Positions 8,356 to 43,210 of a DNA stretch of 64,000 bases are shown here, one piece after another (position 1 is the first letter of the stretch; every line of letters begins with the position of its first letter). Source of the DNA: Verrucomicrobiia bacterium (lineage in GTDB: Bacteria > Verrucomicrobiota > Verrucomicrobiia > Limisphaerales > UBA1319); assembly GCA_963664225.1 (NCBI GenBank), contig OY760937.1:5719427-5783426 (forward strand), written 5' to 3'. A program made the translations under genes and the position numbers. A model generated the notes under the pieces. That model saw nothing but the letters and a program-made list of their open reading frames with translations. It had not been told where the DNA came from and searched no databases.

Positions 8356-8512
8356 AATGACCTGAACCCATCATGGCAGAAAGCACGCGACACGAAAACC
8401 TCTATTTCACATAAATGGCGAGCTGGCTTGAAAACACTTGCGAAGCCTTTTTTTGAATGCGCGATTTTTTATGGTGTCAGAAATGCTCGATTATGCGATT
8501 CTAATCATTGAT

Positions 8513-10885: not shown

Positions 10886-11085
10886 ACAAATGGCGGTGGA
10901 GCGGGGTCAAATAGGGTGGCGGGCATCTATTCGCTTGTGTTGCAATTATGTGAAGGTTTTTTCTTGAAAATCGCAACCGAAATCGCGATTGTTCCACGGT
11001 TACGCACATTTGTGGATATCACCGGTCACTTTTTGTCCAAACTGTTGGGTTAAAGTTGGTAACCATTGAGTTCTGTTTAATCATT

Positions 11086-16773: not shown

Positions 16774-16790
16774 AATTGTTCCTCCGCGAT

Positions 16791-16827
16791 GCGCCCGGCC
16801 AGCATTAGGATGCTCCGGGCGCTTTTT
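16791..16827 (+). terminator. Intrinsic terminator
   Basis: GCGCCCGG-CC-AGCAT-TAGG-ATGCT-CCGGGCGC-TTTTT, 18 nt after the stop of the CotH-domain gene. Confidence 0.75.
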
Positions 16828-17052
16828 ATTAAGCGTGATGATGGGTTCTGTAATTGGGAAGGTGCTTGCGTGTTTCTGGTTAAAAATGCGTGAAGAGCAT
16901 CCTTCCCTGGTAACGATACTTGCCATAACAATGCGATTTGCTTTTACTGTCGGTCGTTCCAATGCAACGACGTTGAGGGTCGTAAATCGAATGCAAGCAC
17001 CGTTTTGGATGGAATTTGAGAGTGCAGGGTTAAAAATCACAGATTTTATTGT

Positions 17053-19377
17053 ATGAGGTTGATGAAAAATGCGGCATTTGCGGCCTGGTTGGGAATATTG
17101 GCGTGCATGACGATTCATGCAGCGGCAGCGCCTGTATTTATAAATGAAGTGCTCGCCAGCAATGTCACTTATCCCGATGCCACAGGCAATACGCCCGACT
17201 GGGTCGAATTATACAATCCATCGACCAATGATGTGAATTTGGGGGGAATGAGCCTTTCGAACGATCCGATCCGGCCGCGGATGTGGGTTTTGCCTGAGGG
17301 TGCCATTGTGCGCGCAGGACGTTACCTCGTCATTTATTTTGACGGGAGCATGCCCGCGTCCTCACGCAATACAGGCTTCAGCCTAAGCGCCACGGGGGAT
17401 GGAGTTTATTTTTACGATGCGAACAGCCAGTTGGTGGATTCTGTTGTCTTTGGAATTCAAATTCCTGATTATTCCATTGGACGTCTTCAAAATATTTCCA
17501 ATCCCTGGCAATTGATGAGGCCCACCTTTGAAGCAGCCAACGAATCGGTGCCGATGGGAAGTCGCGCGTTGCTACGGGTCAACGAATGGATGGCGGATCC
17601 TTCATCCGGGAAAAAGTGGTTCGAGCTTTATAATGGAGACACCATGCCTGTGGAAATGAGCGGGCTTTATCTATCGAACAGCCTGAACAAAAATCCGTAT
17701 AAGTTCAAAATACCGGCCTTGTCGTTTATTGGAACGGGATCGCAAGGTTATCAAAAGTTTCTTTCCGATGACACCGCCTCAACCAGTCCTGATCGTGTTA
17801 ATTTCAAGATTTCAAAATCGGGCGATGACATTGGAATATTCACCGAGTCCGGCGTGGCGATCAATGCGGTGACCTATGGCGCCCAGATCACGGATGTTTC
17901 CGAGGGACGATTGCCTGATGGCGCACCGAATATTGTCAAGTTTTACACCACACCCACTCCGAGCGCGAGCAACTACCTGCCTTTGAATAATGTGGTGATC
18001 AACGAAATTCTGACGCACACCGATCCGCCGCTGCAGGATTCATTGGAACTGTTCAATACAACAGCAACGGATGTTCCCATCGGAGGCTGGTTTATCAGTG
18101 ACAGTCCTTCGAATTTCAAGAAGTTCAAAATACCGGCGGGAACGGTCATCAAAGCGTTTGGTTTCCAGGTTTTCTACGAAGATCAGTTTACCAACACCGC
18201 GAGTCCCTTTAATTTCAATTCTTCGGAGGGGGATTCGGCCATACTTTCCGCCGTTGATTCCGTGGGGAACCTGACAGGCTACCGCGCTGAAGTGAATTTC
18301 GGAGCGGCATTCAACGGTGTTTCCTTTGGGCGATATGTCAACAGCGCGGGAGCGATCCAATATCCGTCCCAAAATGCTGTGACCCTCGGTTCCACAAATG
18401 CAGGCCCCCGCATGAGTCCGGTCGTCATCAATGAAGTCATGTTCAATCCACCAGCAGTGTTGAGCACCAACGATAATACGCAGGACGAATATGTGGAATT
18501 GTTCAACATGACGAGTCAGCCAGCGCCACTTTATAATCCGTTGGAATCAACCAATGCATGGCGTATTCGAGGCGGTATTACTTATGATTTTCCCACGAAT
18601 GTCACGATTCCTGCGGGAGGATATTTGCTTTTGGTCAATTTCGATCCCTCGACCAATGCGCCCGTCTTGGCCCTGTTCCGACAAAATTACGGTGTAAATA
18701 CCAACATTCAATTATTTGGACCGTATCAGGGTAAACTGGGAAATTCAGGCGACTCCATCAAACTGGAATCACCGGATGCGGTGCAGGGCATTGGGCATAT
18801 CAATGAAGGATTTGTGCCCTATGTCACAGTGGATTTGGCGGAATATTCGAGCGTGGGCCCATGGCCGACAGGGGCCAGCGCCAGTGGATGGTCCATCCAA
18901 AAAAAGAATCCTTTCCAATATGGTAATGATCCAACCAATTGGTTTGCCGGGGCGCCAACCGCGGGAAGTCTGAATATCGGTGGAGCGGTGGACTTGGACG
19001 GTGATGGTCTTCCCAACGATTGGGAATTGGCTTATCAGTTTGATCCCATGAATCCAGCCGATGCCCGGCAGGACGCTGACGCTGACGGGGTGTCGAATTT
19101 AAACGAGTATCTCTCCGGGACTGATCCGCGAAATAGTGCCAGCGCTTTGCGGCTTTCCGGTGTTGAACACAAAGCTGACGGTTTGCACATAACATTTGCA
19201 GGGATTGCCGGGCGCACCTATACGGTCCAGTTTTGCGATGGCATTATTGGGGGGACCTGGTCGGATCTTCAGAAGATTGGACCGCTGTCTGCGGCTCAGA
19301 CGGTGGACATCACCGATCCTCTGGCGCCGCAATCTCAGGGACGTTATTACCGTGTGGTTTGCAGACTGGGGCCATAA
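17053..19377 (+). CDS. Secreted LTD-repeat protein, paralogue of 8513-10885
   Basis: Signal peptide and the same domain order as 8513-10885, with near-identical blocks (DVSEGRLPDG, INEILTHTDPPLQD vs INEVLAHTDPPLED, FNGVSFGRY, YGNDPxNW, DxDGDGLPNDWE, RYYRVV). Confidence 0.82.
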   Translation: MRLMKNAAFAAWLGILACMTIHAAAAPVFINEVLASNVTYPDATGNTPDWVELYNPSTNDVNLGGMSLSNDPIRPRMWVLPEGAIVRAGRYLVIYFDGSMPASSRNTGFSLSATGDGVYFYDANSQLVDSVVFGIQIPDYSIGRLQNISNPWQLMRPTFEAANESVPMGSRALLRVNEWMADPSSGKKWFELYNGDTMPVEMSGLYLSNSLNKNPYKFKIPALSFIGTGSQGYQKFLSDDTASTSPDRVNFKISKSGDDIGIFTESGVAINAVTYGAQITDVSEGRLPDGAPNIVKFYTTPTPSASNYLPLNNVVINEILTHTDPPLQDSLELFNTTATDVPIGGWFISDSPSNFKKFKIPAGTVIKAFGFQVFYEDQFTNTASPFNFNSSEGDSAILSAVDSVGNLTGYRAEVNFGAAFNGVSFGRYVNSAGAIQYPSQNAVTLGSTNAGPRMSPVVINEVMFNPPAVLSTNDNTQDEYVELFNMTSQPAPLYNPLESTNAWRIRGGITYDFPTNVTIPAGGYLLLVNFDPSTNAPVLALFRQNYGVNTNIQLFGPYQGKLGNSGDSIKLESPDAVQGIGHINEGFVPYVTVDLAEYSSVGPWPTGASASGWSIQKKNPFQYGNDPTNWFAGAPTAGSLNIGGAVDLDGDGLPNDWELAYQFDPMNPADARQDADADGVSNLNEYLSGTDPRNSASALRLSGVEHKADGLHITFAGIAGRTYTVQFCDGIIGGTWSDLQKIGPLSAAQTVDITDPLAPQSQGRYYRVVCRLGP

Positions 19378-26900: not shown

Positions 26901-28517
26901 TCAGGGCTCTGGCTCTGCTAATCGTGCTTCCACAAATTCAGGTTGTGGCTCTGACCTAGGCGAAGCACAATTTGAATCGTTCTCTCTGTCATTTAAATCG
27001 TTAGAAGGTTTTCCACCCTCGTTTGAATTGGCCTTGGGATCTGATCGACGTTCCGCTTTAGGCGCCTTTACAACGGAGGATTGCGGAGCGGTCTCAGCTA
27101 TCTGCGTTTCGATCCTACCCTTACTTGGGTAAAACTCGTTAATAATTTTTCTGACCAAGGGCATCGTTACGGTGGTTTCAGACTGTTTTGCCTCATCGCG
27201 CGCTAGTTTTGCAATGTTTTCAAAGGTCTTGAGGAAGCTCTCGGCCGTGAGCGCACAAAAAGCGATATCGAGTTTATCTGCCGTATCAGCGATTTCAGGC
27301 AAATAAAACTCCACGAGATTAAGGAGGTCGGACTCAGGCAGTTTATCGGGCAGGTCGAACTCCACCCAACGGCCTTTGTGTTGTTGCATCGGATAGTGGG
27401 TCACGCGTTCAAATTTGGTGACGTCGCCGTGAGTTCCATCAAACCAATCTGGCGTAACTGCTATGACGACCGGCAGATTACGGTCGAAGAGTTGTTTCCG
27501 GACCCAATCGAGCCGGGGAGGGGAGGAATCCTTTTTAGGGGAACGCGGAATCAGAAAATGGCCCTCATCGAAGATCAGGAAAAGTCCACTTTGCTTAACT
27601 ACCTCAAAAATTTGCTGCCGTAGATTTTGGTACCCTGAGACGTGCGCTGTATGAATGCCAAGTGCTTCTGCGACCGCGATCAAGAAGCCAAGCATGTCGT
27701 TAGAATCAGGTACAGTTATCAATCTAGCCCTCCCAGGCCACATTAAGGAATATGCTTCGAGACTTTCCGACTTTCCAAATCTGGATCCACCGCGCAACAA
27801 TATCATCATGTTCGTGCGGAAGGCGATGCCGAGTATTCGGAAAACCTGCTTAGTCACGACCGTCATGACGACACGACTCTGTTTGATCTTGTCAGCTCGG
27901 CAGTCCATGAATTTAAGGATGGCCTCAATTGCATTTTCAAAATACCACGGTCCATCGCAGTCCGGCAAATTGCTGTTGCTTTCAAATCCTTGGTCAAAAT
28001 CCAAACATAATGCAGCCAGGTATTCTGGAAGTATTTCTAAGGCGACGTCTCTGCATGCGTTTCGAAAATATTCGAAGTCCATGTGGCTCGTTGCCATTTC
28101 AAGTAGTTCCCGGGGAAACAATGCCCAACTGCTCAGATGATCCATGGAGGCTTGATTATTAAAAAAGACCATTCCGGTGTCCGGATTGACGATCGACGGT
28201 CGCGCCCACTGCGCCATCTCGCTCCAGACTTGCATTCGCTCGTCAACGCCCCAATTCCGCTTGCCAAATTGGCGCATGCTAACAGTGCCGATTCTATCAT
28301 AATAATCCCGAACTAAATCTGCGGAAAGCAATTTCAAACCGCCTGTCTCCATGGACATCCCTTGTATAGACCAGAGCAATTCAAGCAGACGCGGATTCGC
28401 CTGCATCTGCCTGTACAATTTTGGAGACTTGTAAGATCTTATCGCAGCAACTTTTTGGGCTAATTGTAATGGGTCGATGCTTGTGGCGACTGCAGTCTCT
28501 ATCAGTAGATTTCGCAT
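26901..28517 (-). CDS. AAA+ transposition ATPase (MuB/TnsC-like) with long N-terminal extension
   Basis: Walker A GGSRFGKS, Walker B LIFDEGH, RLDWVR. Lies immediately downstream of the transposase. Confidence 0.8.
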   Translation of the reverse strand: MRNLLIETAVATSIDPLQLAQKVAAIRSYKSPKLYRQMQANPRLLELLWSIQGMSMETGGLKLLSADLVRDYYDRIGTVSMRQFGKRNWGVDERMQVWSEMAQWARPSIVNPDTGMVFFNNQASMDHLSSWALFPRELLEMATSHMDFEYFRNACRDVALEILPEYLAALCLDFDQGFESNSNLPDCDGPWYFENAIEAILKFMDCRADKIKQSRVVMTVVTKQVFRILGIAFRTNMMILLRGGSRFGKSESLEAYSLMWPGRARLITVPDSNDMLGFLIAVAEALGIHTAHVSGYQNLRQQIFEVVKQSGLFLIFDEGHFLIPRSPKKDSSPPRLDWVRKQLFDRNLPVVIAVTPDWFDGTHGDVTKFERVTHYPMQQHKGRWVEFDLPDKLPESDLLNLVEFYLPEIADTADKLDIAFCALTAESFLKTFENIAKLARDEAKQSETTVTMPLVRKIINEFYPSKGRIETQIAETAPQSSVVKAPKAERRSDPKANSNEGGKPSNDLNDRENDSNCASPRSEPQPEFVEARLAEPEP

Positions 28518-28629
28518 ACACCCAATCTTTAACGGGACGATTCACTCAAACTATTATTTCCGAAGTGGCATTAGAAGGTAACGATCGGGATAGATAGAAC
28601 CTGTCAAACTGCAGATCGTTTGTGGTTCC

Positions 28630-31137
28630 TTAAGTGTTTTCCAAACCATGTTGCGATTCAGATTTCGTTTGGCGCAGTTTGTCAGCTTTCTTGCGCATGT
28701 CGATCGCTTGTTCTGCACGGGATGGGTACCGCTTAACAGTTTCTTGTGGAACATGTGCCTTCGTAGCTTCGGTTTGCAACTTGCGTAAGCGGTTATCGGC
28801 CTCCTTCTTTTCGTTATTGAATATTTCATTCTCTCGGTTGTGGAATTCCCCAAACTTCTTCTCTTCCTCAGTATATTCCGCGTCTCGGACAACAGTGGAA
28901 ATTACCTCCGGTTTCAATTCGCTGAAGATTCCCTTTGCGTAAGCTCTGTGTGCTTTTTTAAGTTGTCTGATGGCATCAAGCTGCTCTGGCAAAGCAGTCA
29001 TCGCGGAGGCTTCAACCTCTTGCACAGAAAAGTATTCCTTGTGCTGCCTGTCATAAACCGTGAGTAATTCTGGTAGTTCGATATTGTAAAATGCCAAAAC
29101 TGGTCTCCCGATAATTCGACCCGTGTGCCCGTTGTAATAGAGATGTGGAATTCCTCGAACCTTTATCAATATCCCCTCTTGCCGCACAGTGACGTATTTT
29201 CGGTGAGTGGAGAGAATGTAGCGAGCCTCATTAGGCAGCTTTTTGAGAGTGCTCGTCCGGAATTCATTAGCCCATGCCTCAGATGGTGAATATCCATCGA
29301 GCATTTTACCGTTTTGGGGATCGCGGGCGAAATCATTGAGCACTGACGTAATTCTGCTTACCCAATCTGTCATGGTCGGGAATTGCATCACCGCATCAAG
29401 CTCCCCTCTGCGGGCTCTTGCAAGAAGGTCCTGCATCCTTTCATAACAATCGGTCTGTTCGTTAAAACCAACAAAACCAGGGATGGCCTTCATCTTGTTT
29501 TGCAGGATGAGTAACAGGCCCTCGATTGGTTTGGCGCGTGGTGTTGTTGCGTGGCGCACTTCAAGTTGCATTCCAACGCCACGAAGTCCACTTTCAGTTT
29601 CACGCCAGGGAACGGGCATCCCGCGGCGTCGATCACCGCTGACCAAGCGCGAGGCCCAGACTCCTTGCTCAAAATAATAACCCATGCGCGGTAGTCCGAC
29701 CTTATCGTGGACCTTCAGGGCAAGATTCCGAATGTGTTCGCCATTGTATTTTCCCGGAATCAGCAGGAACTCAAGGGGATAGCCGGTGCGCAGGTCGTTC
29801 ATCAGAAGACATTCACCCCTCATAATTCCCCATCCTCCGTCTGCCAATCGCACCCGGAAATAGTGATTCCAAGTCACATCGTCCGCACAAAACCAATCTC
29901 CAGGTCTGACGCCAGACCAATCTCGCGGGGTATAGGGACCTCGCATCGTGGCCTCCCACGGGCCGTGCAGGAGTGGCAAGCACATCTCAACATCGGGAGT
30001 AATTTTATCCCTCACGGACAGCGGCACATTGCTCTTGTCATCGCGCGGAGCGAATCTATATCGCTTGCAGAATTCATCGCTCAATTCTCCGCGCTCGCGG
30101 AGTTCCCGGTACGCAAGCGATTCATTCCCGCTCAGTTCGATGGCACGGTTCCGGATCTTCTTGAGATCTGCTGTGAAATCTGATTTGCAGAAGTTACCGG
30201 ACGTTAGGCAACGCCGATCCTGCAGAGCTTCCGGATTGCGATTGCCCTCTCGCCACTGAATAATTTTCTCTTCAAATCGCCGCCTGAGGCTCTTGGCTGA
30301 GCCGCACAGCGTGCCAGGCGGAAATGCTTTTGACAGGTAGCACAGCAAAGATGCCTTGATACGGTGCCGTTTGCGATTGCCTTTTGGCGAATCCGTGAGT
30401 GCATCGCTTAGTTTCTCATAGTGCCTGAATACGGCGCTCCACAAGTATTTCTTTTCCTCTGGTGTGGGTTTTTGACGGTCCTCAGTCGACTCGATTATTT
30501 CATCGAGATCTCTATGAATGTACTCCATCTCACGAACGAGCCGCGACGACTTCTGGGTATAAAAAGCCCGATCGTCAAGGTATATCTCCGGTGCTATCCA
30601 ATTTTCCGCCCCGCCATCCCGGTCGATTGAGCGATCGATCAACCGCCGCCAGTGTCGATTGGAAATTGTGTAACCCATATGCTTTTGGAAATTCTCCAAG
30701 CCGAGTTGCTCAATCTGACTCGCGGGAGCGGTCGAGGCATACCAACCGTTTAATGTTGGTGCCAAGGCCTTCTGGAGTTTTAGCGCTTTCTCCCGCCAGA
30801 ACGGTTGCAATTGGGCCCACGCCACTGGTGGAACCCACGGCTCTCTCGGCATGCTCGCAATGTATCGAATTCCATCCTCATATTTGCGTTCTACCCCTCG
30901 ACGCGTCACCCGCAATTGCCAGTCCAATGGAAGCGTTTGAAAGGCCCAAGCCGCTGTTTCCTTTCCTTGGACCGTGACATTTTTGGTTGGGACGACACGC
31001 TCCAAGCCGTAATAGACTGCGCGTCGGGTTATGCCTGTTGCGCGAGAAATCTGCACGACAGTGAACAAATTGTAGGCCTCAGCTGGTTCGCTCATTTTCT
31101 TTTTTGGACTGTGTATGGCCCCGATCCGGGCGTTCAT
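28630..31137 (-). CDS. Mu-like DDE transposase (MuA/TnsB-like)
   Basis: N-terminal HTH (FTVVQISRATGITRRAV), PGDWFCADDVTW, DLRTGYPL, VGLPRMGYYFEQG, PRAKPIEG, PGFVG and a C-terminal beta-rich Mu-transposase-like region. An alternative start at MSEPAE is possible. Confidence 0.82.
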   Translation of the reverse strand: MNARIGAIHSPKKKMSEPAEAYNLFTVVQISRATGITRRAVYYGLERVVPTKNVTVQGKETAAWAFQTLPLDWQLRVTRRGVERKYEDGIRYIASMPREPWVPPVAWAQLQPFWREKALKLQKALAPTLNGWYASTAPASQIEQLGLENFQKHMGYTISNRHWRRLIDRSIDRDGGAENWIAPEIYLDDRAFYTQKSSRLVREMEYIHRDLDEIIESTEDRQKPTPEEKKYLWSAVFRHYEKLSDALTDSPKGNRKRHRIKASLLCYLSKAFPPGTLCGSAKSLRRRFEEKIIQWREGNRNPEALQDRRCLTSGNFCKSDFTADLKKIRNRAIELSGNESLAYRELRERGELSDEFCKRYRFAPRDDKSNVPLSVRDKITPDVEMCLPLLHGPWEATMRGPYTPRDWSGVRPGDWFCADDVTWNHYFRVRLADGGWGIMRGECLLMNDLRTGYPLEFLLIPGKYNGEHIRNLALKVHDKVGLPRMGYYFEQGVWASRLVSGDRRRGMPVPWRETESGLRGVGMQLEVRHATTPRAKPIEGLLLILQNKMKAIPGFVGFNEQTDCYERMQDLLARARRGELDAVMQFPTMTDWVSRITSVLNDFARDPQNGKMLDGYSPSEAWANEFRTSTLKKLPNEARYILSTHRKYVTVRQEGILIKVRGIPHLYYNGHTGRIIGRPVLAFYNIELPELLTVYDRQHKEYFSVQEVEASAMTALPEQLDAIRQLKKAHRAYAKGIFSELKPEVISTVVRDAEYTEEEKKFGEFHNRENEIFNNEKKEADNRLRKLQTEATKAHVPQETVKRYPSRAEQAIDMRKKADKLRQTKSESQHGLENT

Positions 31138-31370: not shown

Positions 31371-31571
31371 TTACATTGGCAGCTTCCGTCGGCTGTTTGC
31401 CCTGCGATGAAATACGCCGTCGATTGAGGGGTGCCGGGTCAGCTTTGCTTGTATGGGCGCGACTGCGTGGAGCCGACATAAATCTCCGAAAACTGCGCAA
31501 ATTGAGCCGCGCGGGAAATCATGCCACCGAGTTGGCGAATCCCCTTCGGGGCGTTTCGGCTTTGCTTCCAT
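31371..31571 (-). CDS. Small hypothetical ORF in the Ner/Cro position (uncertain)
   Basis: ATG 31571, MEAKPKRPEGDSPTRWHDF..., divergent from the repressor and upstream of the transposase. No recognisable motif. Confidence 0.25.
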   Translation of the reverse strand: MEAKPKRPEGDSPTRWHDFPRGSICAVFGDLCRLHAVAPIQAKLTRHPSIDGVFHRRANSRRKLPM

Positions 31572-31586
31572 ATGGCGGATGTGGTA

Positions 31587-31595
31587 TGGTATAAT
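31587..31595 (+). promoter_or_regulatory. Extended -10 promoter for the XRE gene
   Basis: TG-G-TATAAT, 27 nt upstream of ATG 31623. ATAATGCAA is repeated at 31591 and 31620 (possible operator). Confidence 0.55.
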
Positions 31596-31622
31596 GCAAT
31601 AGATACAGCGAAATACAAAATA

Positions 31623-32015
31623 ATGCAAATTAAAAATGACTTTTTTCAAACGATTCGGCTGTTAAGGGTTCAGCGAGGGTTGTCGCAAGTCGAATTCGCT
31701 CGTTTTTTGGGCGTTACCCCGGCTGCGGTATGCAATTGGGAAAAGGGGCTCAGTAGCCCAGCCGAAAAACGGCTGGCGGCGATTGCTCAAAAATTGGGAG
31801 TGCCCGTCGAGTCGCTGCTTTCCATGTCGGTCGGTAACGGTCCGGGGAAAGTTCAGGAGATTCCACCGTGTTCTTCGCCGTTCCTGATTGCGTCAACCGT
31901 CGATGACCGGGGCAAGCGCCAAAAGCAGGCGCGCATGCTGGAGAAATTACTCACTCAGTTCACGGGCCTTGAATTTCGGATCGATAATCCCGCGATTGGA
32001 TCAGGGAAACGGTGA
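31623..32015 (+). CDS. XRE/Cro-C1 family HTH repressor
   Basis: IRLLRVQRGLSQVEFARFLGVTPAAVCNWEKG...LAAIAQKLGVPVESLL. Start moved to ATG 31623. Confidence 0.9.
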   Translation: MQIKNDFFQTIRLLRVQRGLSQVEFARFLGVTPAAVCNWEKGLSSPAEKRLAAIAQKLGVPVESLLSMSVGNGPGKVQEIPPCSSPFLIASTVDDRGKRQKQARMLEKLLTQFTGLEFRIDNPAIGSGKR

Positions 32016-34362: not shown

Positions 34363-35199
34363 CTAAATTGTCCGTGGTTCTAATAATGTGAGAACACCTC
34401 GGCTCCGCAGGCGAATAGCCGATTCCATGAATATTTCGTCAAATTGGCTGCCTTCGGCGACACCTGTAAACCAGGCGCTGGCAACCGTTCCGTTCTGATG
34501 CACCCTTCCCAACGTCAGGGTGTTATCAAGCATCGCTAGGCCCGTGGCTGAATCAGCGGGTATCACTTCATTGGTCAACTTCTTAACCCATTGATACCCT
34601 CGTGACTTCAGTTCTGGGGAAATATCCCACCAGGGTTTGCCAGCATCGCGAAACATAACTATGGCACAGGGTGTTTTGCTTATGGCGGTGAAACGCAGAG
34701 CTGCACTCTGAATGGAAACGCTAAACGTGCTGGCAATATCGACTATGCCTCGCAGCCCAGGTGAAACCTCCGTCAGTGCTTTGCGGAATTCCTGGCCAGG
34801 CATCAGAAGATTTGCAGAGAAGAGATTTGCCTCCACCTCTATAGGACTGTCCGCTGGATGTTCCGTAAAGGAAAAATGCGGTGGCAGGCCTGCCAAGAGT
34901 GCATTGCGGTGTTCATCGATGAAAAGGTGGCCCAGTTCGTGGGCAACTGTAAAACGAGCCCGAGGAGAGTTACAGGGCTGTCCCCGGGTCGTGTTGCAGT
35001 ATATGTGAAATTTGGAACTTCTATGTTCCAACAACCCGTCAAAGGCGTTTCCATAGTCGCCATAAGAGAGGGTTACACCAGATGCATTGACAATTGCATC
35101 CAAAAAAACTTGACGTTCTCTGGAATGGGTTTGCCAAACGTCCTCTGCCAACTCCGAGATGAATATATGACGTTCCCGAGGTAGGTCAATAAGCGCCAT
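34363..35199 (-). CDS. ImmA/IrrE-family Zn metallo-endopeptidase (CapP/PprI-like: peptidase + HTH + GAF-like C-terminus)
   Basis: FDGLL, RARFTVAHELGH (HExxH), EVEANLFSANLLMP, IASTFSVSIQSAALR and a C-terminal extension. Real start MALIDLP at 35199 (278 aa) overlaps the stop of the upstream ORF. Confidence 0.9.
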   Translation of the reverse strand: MALIDLPRERHIFISELAEDVWQTHSRERQVFLDAIVNASGVTLSYGDYGNAFDGLLEHRSSKFHIYCNTTRGQPCNSPRARFTVAHELGHLFIDEHRNALLAGLPPHFSFTEHPADSPIEVEANLFSANLLMPGQEFRKALTEVSPGLRGIVDIASTFSVSIQSAALRFTAISKTPCAIVMFRDAGKPWWDISPELKSRGYQWVKKLTNEVIPADSATGLAMLDNTLTLGRVHQNGTVASAWFTGVAEGSQFDEIFMESAIRLRSRGVLTLLEPRTI

Positions 35200-35587
35200 T
35201 GTTGATTTGTTCCTTTGCCCTGGCCCGATCCGCATCCATACGCTTACGGATTTCCTCGGTAATTTCGCCGCCGTTCCTAGCGGCCATGGCGAGTTTTTCG
35301 AGATCCTGCTCAACTTGAAGTGAACTAATTTTAGAACCAATTCTCGTCGTGGTCGGAAATTCCACAATATTCTCCTCGCTCTGGCGCAGGAGTTGGCGAA
35401 ACTTCTCGGTGTCCGGGGTTGGGACTCCATTCATGTCTATGCTAGCCTTCAGTGAGGCGACATCTTCCGTGATACGCGGAAAGAGATAACCATCATCCCG
35501 AAGTGCAGCATACACAGCTGCTTCGAACTCAGCGTCCGAAAGCTCTTTCGGCTGTTCACTATTCGAGTGGGTCTTCATATGTTGCAT
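35186..35587 (-). CDS. Small acidic hypothetical protein; putative anti-sigma factor / peptidase substrate
   Basis: 133 aa, lying between the sigma and peptidase genes and overlapping the latter. Motifs GYLFP and LAMAARNGGEI..EIRKRM..DR. No HTH or TM segment seen. Confidence 0.7.
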   Translation of the reverse strand: MQHMKTHSNSEQPKELSDAEFEAAVYAALRDDGYLFPRITEDVASLKASIDMNGVPTPDTEKFRQLLRQSEENIVEFPTTTRIGSKISSLQVEQDLEKLAMAARNGGEITEEIRKRMDADRARAKEQINNGAY

Positions 35588-35608: not shown

Positions 35609-36319
35609 TTAAGCGTGTGTTTGGATGAATGCTTTAGCTTGGTCTCTAAGACGCTTGCGACGAACCCGAAGACTGGACTCGGTTAATCCGTATTCTCTAC
35701 AAATGCCCTCACGGATATCGTCATCAATTACCGATTCCCCATTTTCGGGATCCCAGAACTCAGCTGTGACCGTCAGAATTTCCCGGTCCTTTGGAGACAA
35801 AGTTTCCAGGAATCTTAGAACCGCAGCTTTTCGGCTGGTCGGGACTTGCTCTGCCGTCGCCTGACGTTTCTCCTCTATATTTTCCAGCCACTCGGTGTCC
35901 TCGTCCGAGCACCGCACGGCTGGACGTCTATTTTCCGCACGCAGGCTGTCCAAAAACAGGTTTTTCATTATCCGGAACAACCAAGCCAGCACTTGTGCGG
36001 TGCTCTGGCTTGGATCGGTGCACACAAAATGTTCGGCCTCCCGGTAAGCCTTAAGAAACGCAGCGTTCACAAAACTCTCTGCCGATTCCCCGAATGTCTC
36101 TTGGCGGTATTTGATGCACCAAGCCAGCAAAAAGCGGGCATGGCGCCGGTGTAGCTCTTCACAAGCCTTAAGGGCCAATTCCTCATCGGTGTCCTTAAAT
36201 GCCATGTACGTGACCAGTCCGTCGTCAGACTCGCGCTCGAGTTCGGGGTGAGAGCAAGTCACCAATCCGGTGACGGGTTCCGGTTCTTCCAATATGTTGT
36301 TTTGGGCGACGTCTTCCAT
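35609..36319 (-). CDS. ECF-type (group 4) RNA polymerase sigma factor, divergent
   Basis: Region 2-like ACEELHRRHARFLLAWC...AESFVNAAFLKAY...LAWLFRIMKNLFLDSLRA and region 4-like LETLSPKDREIL...ICREYGLTESSLRVRRKRLRDQAK. Confidence 0.8.
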   Translation of the reverse strand: MEDVAQNNILEEPEPVTGLVTCSHPELERESDDGLVTYMAFKDTDEELALKACEELHRRHARFLLAWCIKYRQETFGESAESFVNAAFLKAYREAEHFVCTDPSQSTAQVLAWLFRIMKNLFLDSLRAENRRPAVRCSDEDTEWLENIEEKRQATAEQVPTSRKAAVLRFLETLSPKDREILTVTAEFWDPENGESVIDDDIREGICREYGLTESSLRVRRKRLRDQAKAFIQTHA

Positions 36320-36471
36320 CAAGATTATAACGTTTGGCCGTTACATTGTGCTTATATGGTCATTACTTCTTCTCTTATACGTCACCTCCTGAGCCATGAA
36401 ACGCTAAATCGTTATGACGGTGAAGGAGGAGCAAAGAGCTTCCGAGACAACCTAACGAAAGACCAAATATT

Positions 36472-36852
36472 ATGAAAGAAAATGGAAGATCGCCAGAGGC
36501 GGCTGAAGTGGTGGAAAAAGACCTCAAGAAAATTGGTGAACCTGTGGAAGAAATCGAAAAACTAGAAGAAGAGGTCGATCTTGAATCGTACGCCAAGGCT
36601 GGGAAACAGCCACCGAGGGCAAAGCGGTATCGCATCCGTGTGGATGACCGCTACTTTGTGGTACACCAGGCGTGCATGAAAGGCATTGAAATCTTGGTTC
36701 TGGCAGGAAAAACGCCACCAGAGAGCTTCATTTTAACCCAAAAGTCCAAAGGTGGTGCTTTGCACACGATTGAACTGGGCGATATCGTCGACTTCACCAA
36801 ATCCGGGATTGAACGTTTCAATACACTGCCCCGCCAGGTCCAAGAGGGTTAA
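36472..36852 (+). CDS. Bacterial ubiquitin-like protein (multiubiquitin-type beta-grasp) ending in Gly
   Basis: DLESYAKAGKQPPRAKRYRIRVD...GIEILVLAGKTP...VDFTKSGIERFNTLP. C-terminus ...QVQEG*. First gene of the E2/E1/JAB operon. Confidence 0.85.
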   Translation: MKENGRSPEAAEVVEKDLKKIGEPVEEIEKLEEEVDLESYAKAGKQPPRAKRYRIRVDDRYFVVHQACMKGIEILVLAGKTPPESFILTQKSKGGALHTIELGDIVDFTKSGIERFNTLPRQVQEG

Positions 36853-36855
36853 TCT

Positions 36856-37245
36856 ATGCGCCGCGAATTTACTCTGCCGGAGGACGACGTTGAGCACCTA
36901 GATACGCTTGGCGTGAATTGGGAGACGCTCCGTGATCCCAGCGGGCAATGGCTTCTGCTCCATGGGTTTGCGTTTCCATCGGGCTACAATCACCCGAATG
37001 GGTCCGTTGCCATACAGATCCCGGGAAACTATCCGGTTTCTCCGCTGGACATGGCATATTTCTTTCCTCACCTTCAGCGTCTGGATGGGCAACCGCTCCG
37101 GCAGACAGAATGCATGATGCAGGTGGATGGCAAATCTTGGCAGCGATGGTCCCGACATTACACTTGGGTGCCTGGGCAGCACAACCTCGGCACTCACATC
37201 GTTCTAACGCGCCATTGGCTGGAGCAGGGCGTGGGGAGAGGATGA
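36856..37245 (+). CDS. Prokaryotic E2/UBC-fold protein (Prok-E2_E-like)
   Basis: LPEDDVEHL...WLLLHGFAFPSGYN...IQIPGNYPVSPLDMAYFFP...WQRWSRH...W.PG..NLGTH. Confidence 0.8.
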   Translation: MRREFTLPEDDVEHLDTLGVNWETLRDPSGQWLLLHGFAFPSGYNHPNGSVAIQIPGNYPVSPLDMAYFFPHLQRLDGQPLRQTECMMQVDGKSWQRWSRHYTWVPGQHNLGTHIVLTRHWLEQGVGRG

Positions 37246-38627
37246 AAACTCCCATGATGACTACCTTAAGAATGACGGAGGAACAACGGTGTCAACTCCA
37301 GCGGCACCTTTTTCCCGGCGACGGTCAGGAAATGGTAGCACTCGCCCTGTGCGGTTCCAGTCTCGCGACTGACCGACAAGCGTACTGCGTCCATGAAATT
37401 ATCGAAATTCCGAGGGATGCCTGCACTTTACGGACTGCCGTAACTGTTCAGTGGGATGTGCATGTCTTAATTCCGGTGCTGGAAAAGGCCCTGAAGCGGG
37501 GGTTGTGGGTGCTGAAAATTCATTCCCACCCGGGAAATTACGAGCGATTTTCTCCACAAGACGACCAAACGGATACAGATCTGGCGAAGGGAATCGGGTC
37601 TATTTTGGATCGTGAATCCTGCCTTATCAGCGCGTTTATGATGCCGGCAGGCAAGATTTATGGCCGCATAGTCAACACAACTGCGGGCTTCACCGCAATT
37701 GATCAAATAATGGTGGTGGGTGACACGGTGTCTTTCATGCACGTGAATTTGCTTAATTTGGGGAATGACAAGGATCTGCGCACCAGGCAGGCGTTCGGCG
37801 ATGGAACAACCAATCTGCTGCGGTCGCTTTCGGTAGGCGTGGTTGGGTGTTCAGGGACGGGAAGCTGGGTCGTCGAACTTCTAGGAAGGTTGGGCGTTGG
37901 TCGGCTTATATTAGTGGATCCGGATACAATTGAGAAAAAGAACCTCAACCGGATTGTAAATTCGACCGCAAAAGACCTCGATCGGCCCAAAGTGCACGTT
38001 TTGGCCGATTCAGTTCGGGCAGTGGGATTTGGAACCATCGTCGAAACTCACGCTAAAGAAATAGCTTGCGCCGGGGTCGTTAAGGCTCTGGCTTCTTGCG
38101 ATTTCCTTTTTGGGTGCATGGATTCAGCTGATGGCCGGGAAACCTTAAACCGCATTGCGACCTATTACTTGCTCCCTTATGTGGATATTGGTGTGCGTTT
38201 GGATGCGGATGGACATGGCGGCGTTGAGCAAATATGCTGTGCCCTTCACTATCTTCTCCCAGGCGGCTCGAGTTTGTTATCTCGTGGTGTGATCACAGCG
38301 AAACAGGTTGAGGCGCAGTCGTTACAGCGCACCAACCCGGAACAATATGACTCCCGGCATAACGAGGGATACGTAAAAGGTGTGGCGGTGGACCGTCCAG
38401 CAGTAGTCAGTATCAATGGGTTTATCGCAACCCACGCTGTCAACGAGATGTTAGCGCGCCTGCACCCCTTCCGGCGGGATTCCAACGAGGAATTTCGTTA
38501 TCAACTGTTCTCGCTCTGTGATGGCGCCTGGCTACGGCAGTCAGACGGTCCGCCCTGCCAATTTCTGTCCCGCTATGTTGGACGTGGCGATGCTCAACCG
38601 CTGCTTGGAAATCCCGCATTATCATGA
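37242..38627 (+). CDS. JAB/JAMM peptidase - ThiF/E1 adenylyltransferase fusion
   Basis: ATGA overlap with the E2 gene; 461 aa. JAB motif E...IHSHPGNYERFSPQD (HxH-x7-S-x2-D). E1 motifs VGVVGCSGTGS, VDPDTIEKKNLNR, PKV, FGCMDS..GR. Confidence 0.88.
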   Translation: MKTPMMTTLRMTEEQRCQLQRHLFPGDGQEMVALALCGSSLATDRQAYCVHEIIEIPRDACTLRTAVTVQWDVHVLIPVLEKALKRGLWVLKIHSHPGNYERFSPQDDQTDTDLAKGIGSILDRESCLISAFMMPAGKIYGRIVNTTAGFTAIDQIMVVGDTVSFMHVNLLNLGNDKDLRTRQAFGDGTTNLLRSLSVGVVGCSGTGSWVVELLGRLGVGRLILVDPDTIEKKNLNRIVNSTAKDLDRPKVHVLADSVRAVGFGTIVETHAKEIACAGVVKALASCDFLFGCMDSADGRETLNRIATYYLLPYVDIGVRLDADGHGGVEQICCALHYLLPGGSSLLSRGVITAKQVEAQSLQRTNPEQYDSRHNEGYVKGVAVDRPAVVSINGFIATHAVNEMLARLHPFRRDSNEEFRYQLFSLCDGAWLRQSDGPPCQFLSRYVGRGDAQPLLGNPALS

Positions 38628-38998
38628 AACGGACTTTCAGAGGTTGGCTTGCTGATTGGCTGCGCTCAAATCGAAATGAACCAGTGCGCTTTCGGACAGA
38701 ACGAACGGATCGGATGCTGAGGTCGTTTCAGCCTAATATCATTTACCAGATTGGCGACGAAGATTGTAGTTGGGCTGCCGCCTTGCGTTGTCCCTGCGGT
38801 TGTGGAGACGTTATCCAACTGAGTCTTGTCAGGGATGCCAGCCCGTCGTGGCGAATACAGCAGCGCCGGAATGGGGAGGTAACCTTGTTGCCGTCGGTAT
38901 GGAGAACCGTTGGTTGTCGAAGCCACTTTATTATTTATCGCAGTCGCGTTGTTTGGTGCTCGGATGAATCGCCCGCGATCGACCAGTGGCGGTGGTGA
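38624..38998 (+). CDS. DUF6527-family Cys/His-rich protein
   Basis: ATGA overlap. CPCGCGDVIQLSL...W...TLLPSVWRTVGCRSHFII...VVWC. Confidence 0.8.
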   Translation: MKRTFRGWLADWLRSNRNEPVRFRTERTDRMLRSFQPNIIYQIGDEDCSWAAALRCPCGCGDVIQLSLVRDASPSWRIQQRRNGEVTLLPSVWRTVGCRSHFIIYRSRVVWCSDESPAIDQWRW

Positions 38999-39659
38999 GA
39001 AAAGGCCCTTAATTGACCAAATAGCCCCTTTTAAGCCTTTTCCACTATGAAAACATTTCGAGAAATTCAAATAGCCGCTAACATCGCTAATGGTGACAAG
39101 TTCGGGGTGGCCATTGAGGCGGTCTTGTCGAACGGCTGGACCCGATTCGAGCAAGCGTCCCATTGATTCGACATGTGGCAGGTACGTTTATTTTGTCTGC
39201 GAGACGAGTGATTACCGGCCAAAGGATTTGCTGGCACTTGTCCCCGGAGTTAAAGAATGGCAATTAACGGTTTTTCACAAAAGCATAAGTCTCTAATTAT
39301 GAACGGAATACAGATGACGGAAAGGTCATCAAACGTAACTGGGCAAAATGATTGGCGGTGACGAGCGTGAACTTCCCGCCAAACATTCGTTGCAATGCAA
39401 TTTCCCGCCACGTTTTCAGGTTGATTTTGCTGCATCTTGCCCCTGCAAAGAAAGCGTGGCGGTGCTTAGATTTCGAATTCAGTTGATCGCTCTTGGCCAA
39501 CAGGTCGGCTTTGGCACGCGGCAGCATCGAACGTTTGTCGGCTTCATTCCGGGATTTGATCGCCCATTTCGGCACGCCGTATTTGAGCCAGTTGTTCTTC
39601 TGAAAGGAATTCAGCATCTGAATACCCGTCGACATACACCTGAAGAGGCTCACGGAGTT

Positions 39660-39893
39660 CAATACCACCACCACATGACTCCACAGACTGAAGGTTCTGG
39701 CCATCTTATCAACGTAGGCTTCCCGCGCTATTCTCGTGGAAACCAAAAACTCAGGAACGAAGTTGCAAATCTGCCCTAACAGATTCAATTTCGAACCGGC
39801 TGGAATGCTTTTGTTTTTTTTCACCCCTGCCGTGTGGCAGGTTAACTCAGAACGTTCCAGCCTTTTTCATTTATTCCCTATGGGATGGCTGTG
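39660..39893 (-). pseudogene. IS4-family transposase 5' remnant with terminal repeat
   Basis: MKKNKSIPAGSKLNLLGQICNFVPEFLV...ARTFSLWSHVVV resembles the DUF4372-type N-terminus. Terminal sequence CACAGCCATCCCATAGGGA at 39893-39875. Confidence 0.7.
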
Positions 39894-41154: not shown

Positions 41155-41907
41155 ACAGTCAGGCTGGATGACAAGCCCAATACACAATGAACCGTCACAA
41201 GCATCGTTAAACCAATAAGCCAAAGATGCTGATCAGGCTTAAACCAAAAGGTATGCAATCGGTTGCCTCGCTTTTGAATCGGGGCACACGGACAATGTCG
41301 ATTGCCGGAGTAGAGGCGGTGGCTAAATCATTCGTGTTATGTGAACGAAACACGGTAAACCCGGTGTTCCGTCTTCTCGGAGGCAAGGTGCGCCGCAAGG
41401 TCCGCCCATGGAGTGCCGGGCAGAGGATAGCTGGAACAAACCAAAGCCATTCGATAACAGAATGGATAGGGGCGGCAACATGGCCCCGCCGCGAAAGCGG
41501 GCAGACTTCCAGCAGGTCGAGCGTCACGAGAGCGTTGGCAGAACCTTTTTGTGGAGGAAATCGCAAATGAACGTGGATTTATCCATGTGTGCATCCTCCG
41601 ACCTGATACAGCACTGGGACCAGATCGACTGGAACCGGTGTCGACGCCAGGTAAAAAGGCTGCAAGCCCGTATCGTGAACGCCACACGGGATAGACGCTG
41701 GGGCAAGGTGAAAATCTTGCAACGGCTGCTGACCCACTCGTTTAGCGGCAAAGCCTTGGCTGTAAGCGAGTGACGGAAAATAACCGTCATGATTGGACCG
41801 GCCCTGCCCGTAGCAGGGCTTTGCAACGGCGTGAGCCGTATGAGGCGAAAGTCTCCCGTACGGTTCTTAGGGGAGAGGGTGGCCGAAAGGCCATCCTCTT
41901 ACCCGAC
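41155..41907 (+). mobile_element. Degenerate group II intron (IIB/chloroplast-like): 5'-truncated, RT ORF internally deleted, intact domains V and VI
   Basis: DV GAGCCGTATGAGGCGAAAGTCTCCCGTACGGTTC (41833-41866), DVI ending ACCCGAC (41907), and the RT N-terminus upstream. No GTGYG 5' end found; the left coordinate is approximate. Confidence 0.88.
41567..41785 (+). pseudogene. Group II intron reverse transcriptase N-terminal fragment
   Basis: GGAGG RBS. MNVDL...HWDQIDWNRCRRQVKRLQARIVNATRDRRWGKVKILQRLLTHSFSGKALAV, then a frameshift into (R)VTENN; the rest of the RT is deleted. Confidence 0.88.
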
Positions 41908-42342
41908 CAGATCAAACAGACCCTGCAACTGGCCGACTTTCTGGGCACCAGCGCCAACGCGGTGCGCTGGCAGGTTTGGACGGCGCTTCTGGTGTATTTA
42001 CTCCTGAGGTATGTGGCGTTTCTATCGGACTGGAGCCATGGTTTCAGCCGGTTGTTCACCATCCTTCGTTCGTCACTATGGCGCAAATGGGACTAGGTGG
42101 GTTTGCTGCGCCACTATGGGACAGCCGGGGGTCACTTTCGCTATCTGGCCACACCGGAACAGGCCTATCTGCCTGGATTTAGCTAAAACCATGGGACAGC
42201 ATACGGGCATTTTGGCAAAAAGGCCGAATTGATTATGTAAGAGACCATGAAAACTCCCAACGCCACCTTTTAAATCATGCCTCACTTTTCGAGGAAACTG
42301 AATGCTTTTGCCCCGCTTTTATCTCCCTATGGGATGGCTGTG
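41908..42342 (+). pseudogene. IS4-family transposase 3' remnant with terminal repeat (3' exon of the intron)
   Basis: QIKQTLQLADFLGTSANAVRWQVWTALLVYLLLRY...KWD*VGLLRHYGTAGG...QAYLPGFS* (internal stop). Terminal TCCCTATGGGATGGCTGTG at 42324-42342. Confidence 0.8.
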
Positions 42343-42529: not shown

Positions 42530-43210
42530 GTGAAAATACTCGTTCGAAACACTGGTGGGAATCATGGGAATGTGGTTAAAGGCTTTGCGGCTGCAGTGAA
42601 GACTTGCGAGAAGGTGGGGACCAAAGCTTTTACATTAATCATACCGAAGAAGGCAAACCTGGCGACGACCGTCGTGGGGGAGTTCCTCGGCCAGGGTGTT
42701 GCGAAGCGATTGGTCTCAGGTGAAGCAGTGACGTTATGCGGCGGCGTCAGTTTCAGGGCTGAGAGCATCAGCACGATGCAAAAGGCAGGACATGAAAGGG
42801 TAATCCTGGTGTTCTACGCCGACCGGGAACGAATGAAGGCGATTGACGGGCTCAGCGGCGTTGACGGCATAGTGTATGTGCCATGGCTGGAAGACGAGGG
42901 TAACGACTGGCAGCGAACCTGGAACGCTACGGTTGTCGGCGAGCAGGTGCAGCCGCAAGAGCCGAATCTAGACGCAAGCGTAGTAGCCGCTTTGGAGGAA
43001 CTCACAAGGTCGGTGAATCTGACCACTGGCTTGGGTCATACTTCAGACAATGAGCACGCGACACGGGTATTTAAAGGACTGAGGGACAAAGGTATGTTGT
43101 TTGAACCTGCTGAGGTTGAAACATGGGCTTCGCGGCGCGGTTGGCGACCAGATCATGCGGCAAAGCTGAGAAAATTGGCGGAGAGGTACGCTGGCCGCGT
43201 AGCAGATTGA
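42530..43210 (+). CDS. Hypothetical protein with C-terminal DUF1889/YoaC-like domain
   Basis: 226-aa intact ORF. C-terminal VAALEELTRSVNLTTGLGHTSD...WASRRGWRPDHAAKLRKLA resembles DUF1889. Confidence 0.55.
   Translation: MKILVRNTGGNHGNVVKGFAAAVKTCEKVGTKAFTLIIPKKANLATTVVGEFLGQGVAKRLVSGEAVTLCGGVSFRAESISTMQKAGHERVILVFYADRERMKAIDGLSGVDGIVYVPWLEDEGNDWQRTWNATVVGEQVQPQEPNLDASVVAALEELTRSVNLTTGLGHTSDNEHATRVFKGLRDKGMLFEPAEVETWASRRGWRPDHAAKLRKLAERYAGRVAD

Follow-up and report, generated by a model that had tools for sequence, protein, structure and literature searches.

A probable Type I Bub operon in a Verrucomicrobiia bacterium, with divergent genes for a sigma factor, a CapH-like protein and CapP

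Introduction

The bacterial operons formerly called '6E/DUF6527' have been renamed Bub (Ye, Gong, Chambers and Corbett, 10.1101/2024.11.21.623953, hereafter Ye et al.; Gong et al., 10.1101/2024.11.21.623966). As set out in the available text of Ye et al., a Type I Bub operon codes for a ubiquitin-like protein (Ubl), the E2-like protein BubB, a fusion of a JAB domain with an E1 enzyme (BubCD) and BubE, which belongs to DUF6527. The E1 forms an oxyester between the Ubl and a tyrosine, the E2 an oxyester between the Ubl and a serine, and BubE is a Ser–His protease with a C4 zinc site that strips conjugates. The Citrobacter homologue conjugates proteins in an ATP-dependent manner, both in vitro and in cells; that the Ubl is attached to lysines at the expense of ATP is shown in that source for the Citrobacter and Escherichia coli homologues only. 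Here, we describe a locus of this family in a stretch of 64,000 nucleotides from Verrucomicrobiia bacterium (assembly GCA_963664225.1, contig OY760937.1, positions 5,719,427 to 5,783,426 of the forward strand). The whole stretch that was analysed is called the window, and all positions given below are counted from its first letter. The locus combines a four-gene Bub operon with a divergent operon of three putative regulatory genes.

Regulation of such operons has been linked to a pair of proteins, CapH and CapP, which adjoins 31% of Bub operons according to Ye et al. Canonical CapH is described by Lau et al. (10.1101/2022.04.27.489752) as a repressor that is cleaved by CapP, the cut falling before Arg83, and single-stranded DNA is reported to activate CapP homologues. 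The available text of the same work notes 24 cyclic oligonucleotide-based antiphage signalling systems (CBASS) in which capH and capP adjoin a sigma factor of the sigma-70 family, and does not follow this up; this was the only mention of a sigma factor returned by our literature search, and it is unexplained there. In the text of Ye et al. that could be consulted, 'sigma' occurs only as the name of a vendor, and the word does not occur in their Table S1.

General features of the Bub operon

The operon consists of four genes on the forward strand. The gene bubA (36472–36852) encodes the Ubl, a protein of 126 amino acids that ends in QVQEG and is followed by TAA (Pfam Multi_ubiq, 4.4e-12), and bubB (36856–37245) an E2-like protein of 129 amino acids without cysteine (Prok-E2_E, 4.1e-33). 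They are followed by bubCD (37242–38627), which encodes the JAB–E1 fusion of 461 amino acids counted from the ATG at 37242 (ThiF, 9.2e-28; Prok-JAB, 4.3e-4), and by bubE (38624–38998), whose product of 124 amino acids belongs to DUF6527 (PF20137, 1e-19). A gap of three nucleotides (TCT) separates bubA from bubB, and ATGA overlaps join bubB to bubCD (37242–37245) and bubCD to bubE (38624–38627).

A preliminary description of this DNA had proposed four translationally coupled genes with one 3-nucleotide gap and two ATGA overlaps, encoding a Ubl, an E2-fold protein, a JAB–E1 fusion and a DUF6527 protein. Inspection of the open reading frames and of the sequence reproduced the coordinates and the junctions exactly, and searches with hidden Markov models agreed with all four identities, the Prok-JAB match (20.6 bits) lying under the cut-off of 25 bits. 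What establishes the JAB domain is that BubCD matches the solved Citrobacter BubCD over its full length (9ea4_A, 2.4e-68, residues 9–460); BubB matches Citrobacter BubB in the same way (9eae_C, 8.2e-27, residues 2–127). What had been overlooked are the neighbouring genes on the other strand. Together with these, the operon forms a self-contained cassette of seven genes: bubA, bubB, bubCD and bubE, and the divergent genes for a sigma factor, a CapH-like protein and CapP.

Judged by its homology to the Citrobacter system, the four-gene operon very probably is a Type I Bub operon (formerly 6E.1/DUF6527) with the corresponding chemistry; we put the probability of this assignment at about 0.88. As a Bub operon, it is ordinary for its family: it is not a new system, and it adds a Verrucomicrobia-type member.

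The comparisons reported here are based on a scan of one genome per species, which gave 178 confirmed loci; the best 80 were kept, and the comparison set thus comprises 81 operons (that of the window and those of the 80 loci, which are designated by L and a number). With the proteins of the window as queries, tblastn finds BubB, BubCD and BubE in all 80 loci and BubA in 79 of them. Relatives of BubCD at E ≤ 0.001 number 3123 among the 8000 candidates scored, the closest having 77% identity.

The published catalytic residues were located through the alignments to the Citrobacter proteins, taking into account that the chain numbering runs two ahead of that of the paper, as is shown by the D104A chain. 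The JAB/JAMM peptidase domain occupies approximately residues 1–170 of BubCD and carries Glu30, His94, His96, Ser104 and Asp107; Glu30, His94, His96 and Asp107 align with E28, H91, H93 and D104 of Citrobacter. In the E1 domain, Arg237 (adenylation) corresponds to R227 and Tyr377 to Y370 of the crossover loop, and the loop (residues 347–384) contains no cysteine. These JAB and E1 residues are invariant in alignment A1. Asp65, Ser99 and His101 of BubB align with D299, S333 and H335. BubE has a Trp/Leu-rich N-terminal extension, a C4 zinc site (Cys56, Cys58, Cys60 and Cys98) and a Ser91–His101 dyad, which correspond to C57, C59, C61, C99, S92 and H102 of the Citrobacter protein as given in Ye et al.

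Conservation of these positions is almost complete. Tyr377 and Arg237 of BubCD, Ser99 and His101 of BubB, and Ser91, His101 and Cys98 of BubE are kept in all 81 operons, Asp65 of BubB in 80 and Cys56, Cys58 and Cys60 of BubE also in 80; the crossover loop is free of cysteine in 76. Since every published catalytic residue is present, the chemistry is expected to be Cys-free and to proceed through oxyesters.

The AlphaFold2 model of BubA (predicted local distance difference test, pLDDT, above 90 over residues 32–120 and below 50 over residues 1–29) comprises a disordered acidic N-terminal tail and one beta-grasp domain. The best Foldseek matches of the model are the bacterial multi-ubiquitin 8u38 and Citrobacter BubA (9ea8_B, template modelling score 0.81 on the target). 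The terminal Gly126 is invariant in alignment A4, which contains 13 sequences.

The system of Citrobacter sp. RHBSTW-00271 (PDB 9ea4, 9ea8, 9eae and 9eav) is thus the closest described counterpart: the gene order and the four protein families are the same, the matches of BubCD and BubB are full-length, and all of the published catalytic and zinc-binding residues are found here. Three features distinguish the locus of the window. Its bubA and bubB are separate genes, with the stop codon directly after the glycine, so that cleavage by JAB is not required; its BubA has a single beta-grasp domain behind the acidic tail, whereas Citrobacter BubA has three; and its regulator is the sigma-type trio.

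The divergent regulatory genes

The divergent operon lies on the reverse strand and is separated from bubA by an intergenic region of 149 bp. Its first gene (35609–36322, likely start at the ATG at 36319) encodes a sigma factor of the extracytoplasmic function (ECF) type, which matches Sigma70_r2 at 1.5e-7 and the sigma70-ECF family TIGR02937 with 46.1 bits over residues 53–230, against a cut-off of 42.9. It is composed of sigma2 and sigma4, preceded by some 50 additional N-terminal amino acids of acidic character, and its matches to solved ECF sigma factors are weak. The second gene (35186–35587) encodes the CapH-like protein, of 133 amino acids, which is matched by the PADLOC model capH at 2.9e-6. 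The third, capP (34363–35196), encodes an IrrE/ImmA-type HExxH metallopeptidase (PADLOC capP, 7.1e-43; Peptidase_M78, 2.7e-12) whose translation contains the motif HELGH. Its start was taken at the ATG at 35196, the open frame extending to 35430; with this start, the end of the CapH-like gene and the beginning of capP share 11 nucleotides, an overlap that recurs in L002 and L003. A sigma-like gene adjoins bubA in 31 of the 80 loci, 26 of them detected by tblastn and five more by Pfam.

The CapH-like protein is distinct from canonical CapH. Neither Pfam nor NCBIfam has a family for it, and a search of solved structures gave no relative at E ≤ 10, although CapH structures have been deposited. 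Pfam detects no helix–turn–helix (HTH) domain either in the protein of the window or in any of the 16 sigma-type loci tested, whereas at the four CapP loci that have no sigma-like open reading frame and whose intervening open reading frame scored in Pfam (L019, L029, L069 and L071) the neighbour is in every case a CapH with an HTH_3 domain, at 1e-10 to 1e-14; L041 and L058 were left unclassified in this comparison. In alignment A2, Ala102-Ala103-Arg104 is invariant within a conserved LAMAARNGG. When modelled alone, the protein gives five helices without a compact fold (pLDDT 70).

Modelled together, the sigma factor and its CapH-like neighbour gave a complex with a score of 0.81, the best of three controls scoring 0.00; this mark is reached by 116 of 157 solved complexes and by 2 of 215 mismatched pairs, counts that apply only roughly here, since we used our own alignments. 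Repeated runs agree in at least 69% of the contacts, and the pLDDT of the partner is at least 61. In the predicted complex, residues 15–71 of the CapH-like protein contact both sigma2 (42–122) and sigma4 (149–233), while the conserved C-terminal motif stays free. The model supports binding without showing it; the CapH-like protein is a predicted anti-sigma factor that would clamp the sigma factor, and it matches no anti-sigma domain family known in Pfam.

Compared with the CapH+CapP regulators of Lau et al., the divergent placement beside the controlled operon is the same, the peptidase is of the CapP family with HExxH, and the small protein is encoded just upstream of capP in both; the conserved arginine may mark the cleavage site here. 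The differences are that the operon begins with a gene for an ECF sigma factor here and that the predicted action of the small protein is sequestration of this factor instead of DNA binding.

Pairs of ECF sigma and anti-sigma factors in which the sigma factor is freed by regulated proteolysis, such as sigmaE–RseA, are well known. The trio resembles them in having a predicted helical partner on sigma2 and sigma4, in the co-transcription of the sigma factor and partner genes, and in a motif that stands before both the sigma operon and the target operon. It differs from them in that the partner would be soluble and lies outside the known Pfam families of anti-sigma factors, and in that the protease would be a cytoplasmic IrrE/ImmA-type enzyme sensing single-stranded DNA, not a membrane protease cascade. 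No report of an IrrE/DUF955-type protease acting on an anti-sigma factor was found in the literature searched, where the term 'irre' also matches unrelated words.

A directional motif in the intergenic region

The 149-bp intergenic region contains two copies of the palindrome AACG-N6-CGTT, at 36329–36342 and 36400–36413. The window contains six copies in total, against 1.27 expected, and none of 100 shuffled sequences reaches six. In the 80 loci (960 kb), 17 of the 32 copies fall in this same intergenic region; they come from nine loci.

Each palindrome is part of a longer motif. The copy facing the sigma factor gene (36329–36345, reverse strand) reads TGTAACG-N6-CGTT; the one facing bubA (36397–36413, forward strand) reads TGAAACG-N6-CGTT and is followed by the conserved block GGTGAAGG (36419–36426), the whole element spanning 36397–36426. 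In its extended form, TGT[AC]AC-N7-CGT, the motif has a direction, and each of the two genes is faced by one copy. Of 32 sigma-type loci, 14 carry it at most 400 nucleotides upstream of bubA, ten of these on both strands, as against one of the 48 other loci; it occurs three times in the remaining 1.96 million strand-bases. The loci that carry it belong to Verrucomicrobiota, Acidobacteriota and Bacteroidota. An ECF sigma factor that regulates its own operon would be expected to leave such a pattern, in which the motif accompanies the sigma factor and points towards both operons. The motif may be a promoter element, an operator or both; its internal palindrome and short spacing do not fit a standard pair of –35 and –10 boxes.

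A stricter pattern of two blocks, GT[AC]AC-N16-18-GTG[AG]AG, occurs upstream of bubA in only eight sigma-type loci and in one locus of the other kind, L048, not in the window, and is not claimed as a promoter. A sigma-70 promoter scan of 36250–36520 gave one weak site (36444–36473), which overlaps the start codon of bubA; no terminator was found, and neither result was used. The repeat search missed the imperfect inverted motif and gave only an unrelated palindrome of 11 nucleotides inside the sigma factor gene.

The leader of bubA also contains a potential hairpin behind the GGTGAAGG block (36414–36474, forward strand), with a stem of 4–11 bp and a loop of about five nucleotides. It folds in all eight orthologues compared (the window, L001, L002, L003, L004, L008, L013 and L021), in which the stem sequences differ; the z-scores are weak (–3.1 to +0.4).

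The proposed switch

We lean slightly towards a sigma/anti-sigma switch as the explanation of these observations. The CapH-like protein, which has no HTH, would keep the sigma factor from acting. Once single-stranded DNA has activated it, as shown for its homologues, CapP would cleave the CapH-like protein, perhaps before Arg104, and the freed sigma factor would transcribe both operons from promoters of the TGT(A/C)AC type. A cut at this place would leave a C-terminal end ...MAA, which resembles known ClpXP degrons.

Several observations weigh against such a switch. In the window, the copy of the motif on the bubA side is imperfect (TGAAAC), the motif contains a palindrome of the kind bound by dimeric repressors, and its spacing is short, not that usual between the –35 and –10 elements of ECF promoters. 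The complex is known from prediction only, and the solved structures include many pairs of sigma and anti-sigma factors; the CapH-like protein modelled alone gives a poor result (predicted template modelling score 0.24). PADLOC, finally, files the small protein under capH, which is a family of repressors.

The alternative is the canonical CapH+CapP mode, in which the small protein would be a repressor of unrecognised fold acting on the AACG-N6-CGTT palindromes, with the sigma factor as an accessory. The match to capH, the two palindromic sites between the operons, their enrichment in the window and in the intergenic regions of related loci, and the behaviour of canonical CapH as a CapP-cleaved repressor (10.1101/2022.04.27.489752, as far as its text was available) all speak for it. 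However, the small protein is acidic (pI 5.0) and, like its homologues at the 16 sigma-type loci tested, lacks the HTH domain found in CapH proteins of loci without the sigma factor; it resembles none of the deposited CapH structures, the prediction places it on the sigma factor, and the longer motif has a direction, as promoters have. The repressor is rather unlikely, and the sigma/anti-sigma switch is used as the working model below.

Separation of bubA and bubB and the role of the JAB domain

The separation of bubA from bubB stands against a simple assignment to Type I, since the published text describes Type I operons as BubAB fusions: according to the main text of Ye et al., all of them encode such a fusion, and JAB cuts it after the glycine. 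In Table S1 of the same work (10.1101/2024.11.21.623953), however, at least 31 operons with separate gene identifiers for the Ubl and the E2 are filed under Type I. Fusion is therefore taken as a common state and not as a defining feature, and the split form is not new.

Among the 81 operons, 41 are split and 39 are fused; L062 gave no BubA match in tblastn, yet its reading frame stays open across the junction, and it was added to the fused group (total 40). In the split operons, the two genes are in different frames in 33 cases and in the same frame in 8, and the Ubl ends in a glycine followed by the stop in 31; in another nine, tails of one to six residues follow the glycine, and L027 is ambiguous. 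On the BubCD tree, the state changes between split and fused at least five times, of which at least four are forced by well-supported branches. The window falls within a clade of 14 operons, all of them split (Shimodaira–Hasegawa-like approximate likelihood-ratio test support 99). Stand-alone BubB proteins are common: among the best 150 representatives, 62 have at most 160 amino acids and 83 have at least 200.

In the window, bubA and bubB share one reading frame and are separated only by the TAA and one codon. Together with the published description of fusions, this might suggest that a BubAB fusion has recently been interrupted by a nonsense mutation, that the TAA behind Gly126 is a sequencing error, or that it is read through. 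Such a lesion or read-through is very improbable. About half of the operons are split, most of them with the genes in different frames and with a terminal glycine, and every member of the clade of the window is split; the same-frame cases (8 of 41) are no more numerous than the one in three due to chance. In addition, the bubB ATG lies 3 nucleotides after the stop and has its own Shine–Dalgarno-like sequence, GAGGG, in the last two codons of bubA, 8 nucleotides before that ATG. As split operons are frequent and their frames mixed, the same-frame TAA is regarded as a normal gene boundary.

A Ubl that already ends in glycine does not need JAB for its maturation; the preliminary description had made this point, and the TAA directly after Gly126 bears it out. 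The JAB active site is nevertheless intact in 40 of the 41 split operons, as in all 40 fused ones, and in 30 of the 31 whose Ubl ends in glycine. The only loss among the 81 operons is found in L077, a locus from a metagenome-assembled genome of Geobacteraceae, where Glu, His, His, Ser and Asp are replaced by Ser, Thr, Glu, Ala and Glu, that is, at all five positions. Its BubA is split and ends in glycine, so that L077 is a natural JAB-dead Type I Bub operon. As the site is kept where no precursor exists, we argue for a second function: JAB probably does more than cut the BubAB precursor. The suggestion, also made in the preliminary description, that JAB could serve as a deconjugase gains support from this pattern of conservation.

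The conjugation cascade and its alternatives

By homology, the E1 domain of BubCD would adenylate Gly126 of BubA with the help of Arg237 and then load BubA on Tyr377 as an oxyester. Ser99 of BubB, assisted by His101 and Asp65, would accept BubA and pass it to a lysine of a target protein, and BubE would remove BubA conjugates by means of its Ser91–His101 dyad and C4 zinc site. As BubA already carries a free C-terminal glycine, the JAB domain would act on conjugates or side products.

The preliminary description thus holds for the identities of the proteins, the terminal glycine and a further role of JAB, and is outdated or unsupported on other points. It had considered the DUF6527 protein an uncharacterized E3-like adaptor or acyl carrier, a proposal superseded by the description of BubE as a Ser–His protease that removes conjugates (Ye et al.). 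It had missed that the E1 and E2 would act through Tyr and Ser oxyesters and not through Cys thioesters. The role in antiphage defence that it suggested remains only an inference, against which it must be set that Ye et al. report no phage protection by Bub in E. coli.

Type II Bub, Bil and Type II CBASS (Cap2/Cap3) have in common with the locus of the window a ThiF-type E1, a UBC-like E2 and a deconjugating peptidase, and they occur in mobile or defence contexts, as here; Bub and Bil also share the beta-grasp Ubl. According to the available text of Ye et al. (10.1101/2024.11.21.623953), Type II Bub has an E2–E1 fusion and usually no JAB, whereas the window encodes a JAB–E1 fusion; Bil and Cap2 use catalytic cysteines, in place of which Tyr377 and Ser99 are found here; and CBASS conjugates a CD-NTase (cGAS/DncV-like nucleotidyltransferase), not a Ubl.

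A pathway of the sulfur-carrier type (ThiS/MoaD-like thiocarboxylate) without protein targets could be considered on the grounds that the E1 belongs to the ThiF family and that its nearest solved relatives outside Bub include ThiF, MoeB and TcdA. It is highly improbable: sulfur transfer has no use for the E2-like BubB with its conserved Ser/His/Asp triad, nor for the two peptidases, JAB and BubE; only one glycine stands at the end of the Ubl (QEG), no thiamine or molybdopterin genes are conserved next to the cassette, and the close Citrobacter homologue, as described by Ye et al., forms protein conjugates.

A system that depends on cysteines, like CBASS Cap2/Cap3 or Bil, the comparison drawn in the preliminary description, is just as improbable and a Cap2-type classification was rejected, since the PADLOC E1–E2 (Cap2) models, in a collection without Bub models, match weakly (5e-12 or weaker) and only in the ThiF core of the adenylation domain (residues about 155–307), the match to BubCD is better by 56 orders of magnitude, the E2 is a separate protein with serine at the catalytic position, JAB is fused to the E1, and the crossover loop has Tyr instead of Cys.

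Distribution and genomic environment

Several features of the region are consistent with horizontal acquisition of the cassette. The window's genome of 5.78 Mb contains one DUF6527 gene, and a full-length BubCD was found in none of 30 relatives of the same genus, family or order, in which only the ThiF core was matched, and weakly (E 1e-15 or worse). The cassette lies between lepA/lepB and a sigma-54 activator, in a region with a G+C content of 0.48–0.52 against about 0.55; the low-G+C stretch also carries fragments of reverse-transcriptase and transposase genes. The 14 closest operons have no flanking gene in common outside the seven-gene cassette. No tRNA gene was found in the interval 20000–50000.

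Other genes of the island were also inspected. Just after lepA/lepB, at the edge of the low-G+C island, there are genes for proteins of 538 and 835 amino acids (26901–31137, reverse strand), followed by an HTH_3 regulator (31521–32015, forward strand). The two proteins match no Pfam, NCBIfam or PHROG family, apart from a weak AAA_22 match of the 538-residue protein that lies below the cut-off (1.1e-5), and the genes may belong to a mobile element of an undescribed type. Downstream of bubE are a weakly DUF4372-like open reading frame (39297–39824, reverse strand), itself a mobile-element fragment, and a fragment of 121 amino acids that matches RVT_N (reverse transcriptase N-terminal), followed by short open reading frames (41408–42096, forward strand); by their appearance, these fragments are left over from a group II intron or retroelement. 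An open reading frame of 226 amino acids in the same island (42530–43210, forward strand) matches only DUF1889, below the threshold (4.8e-5; 23.7 bits, the cut-off being 26.9), and nothing in PADLOC, PHROG or NCBIfam.

Farther away in the window, three very large genes (8438–19377, forward strand; products of 815, 1905 and 774 amino acids) encode repeated Lamin Tail Domains, to which the largest, of 1905 amino acids, adds CotH, PA14 and chitobiase C-terminal domains. They probably encode surface or secreted proteins unrelated to the Bub operon. In one of the compared loci, L020, a second bubA–bubB-like pair (positions 10845–11376 of that locus), 74–76% identical to that of the window, lies about 3.5 kb downstream of the fused Bub operon of that locus.

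Implications for Bub operons

Taken as a whole, the picture is tentative, and we rate its chances somewhat below even. In about one-third of Type I Bub operons, an ECF sigma factor and a CapH-derived anti-sigma factor without HTH would have replaced CapH; CapP activated by single-stranded DNA would cut before Arg104 (LAMAA/RNGG) and so free the sigma factor to act at both TGT(A/C)AC promoters, and JAB would have a function beyond cutting the precursor.

The retained JAB site bears on the suggestion of Ye et al. that JAB may act 'primarily or solely' on the BubAB pre-protein, and operons that are already split provide clean material for probing a deconjugase or proof-reading role of this domain. 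As for regulation, the sigma factor, its HTH-less partner and CapP provide a concrete model for the induction of some Bub operons. If true, an IrrE-type protease would here have become part of a sigma switch gated by DNA damage. Knowledge of the signal that induces Bub operons probably offers the shortest way to their biological role and targets.

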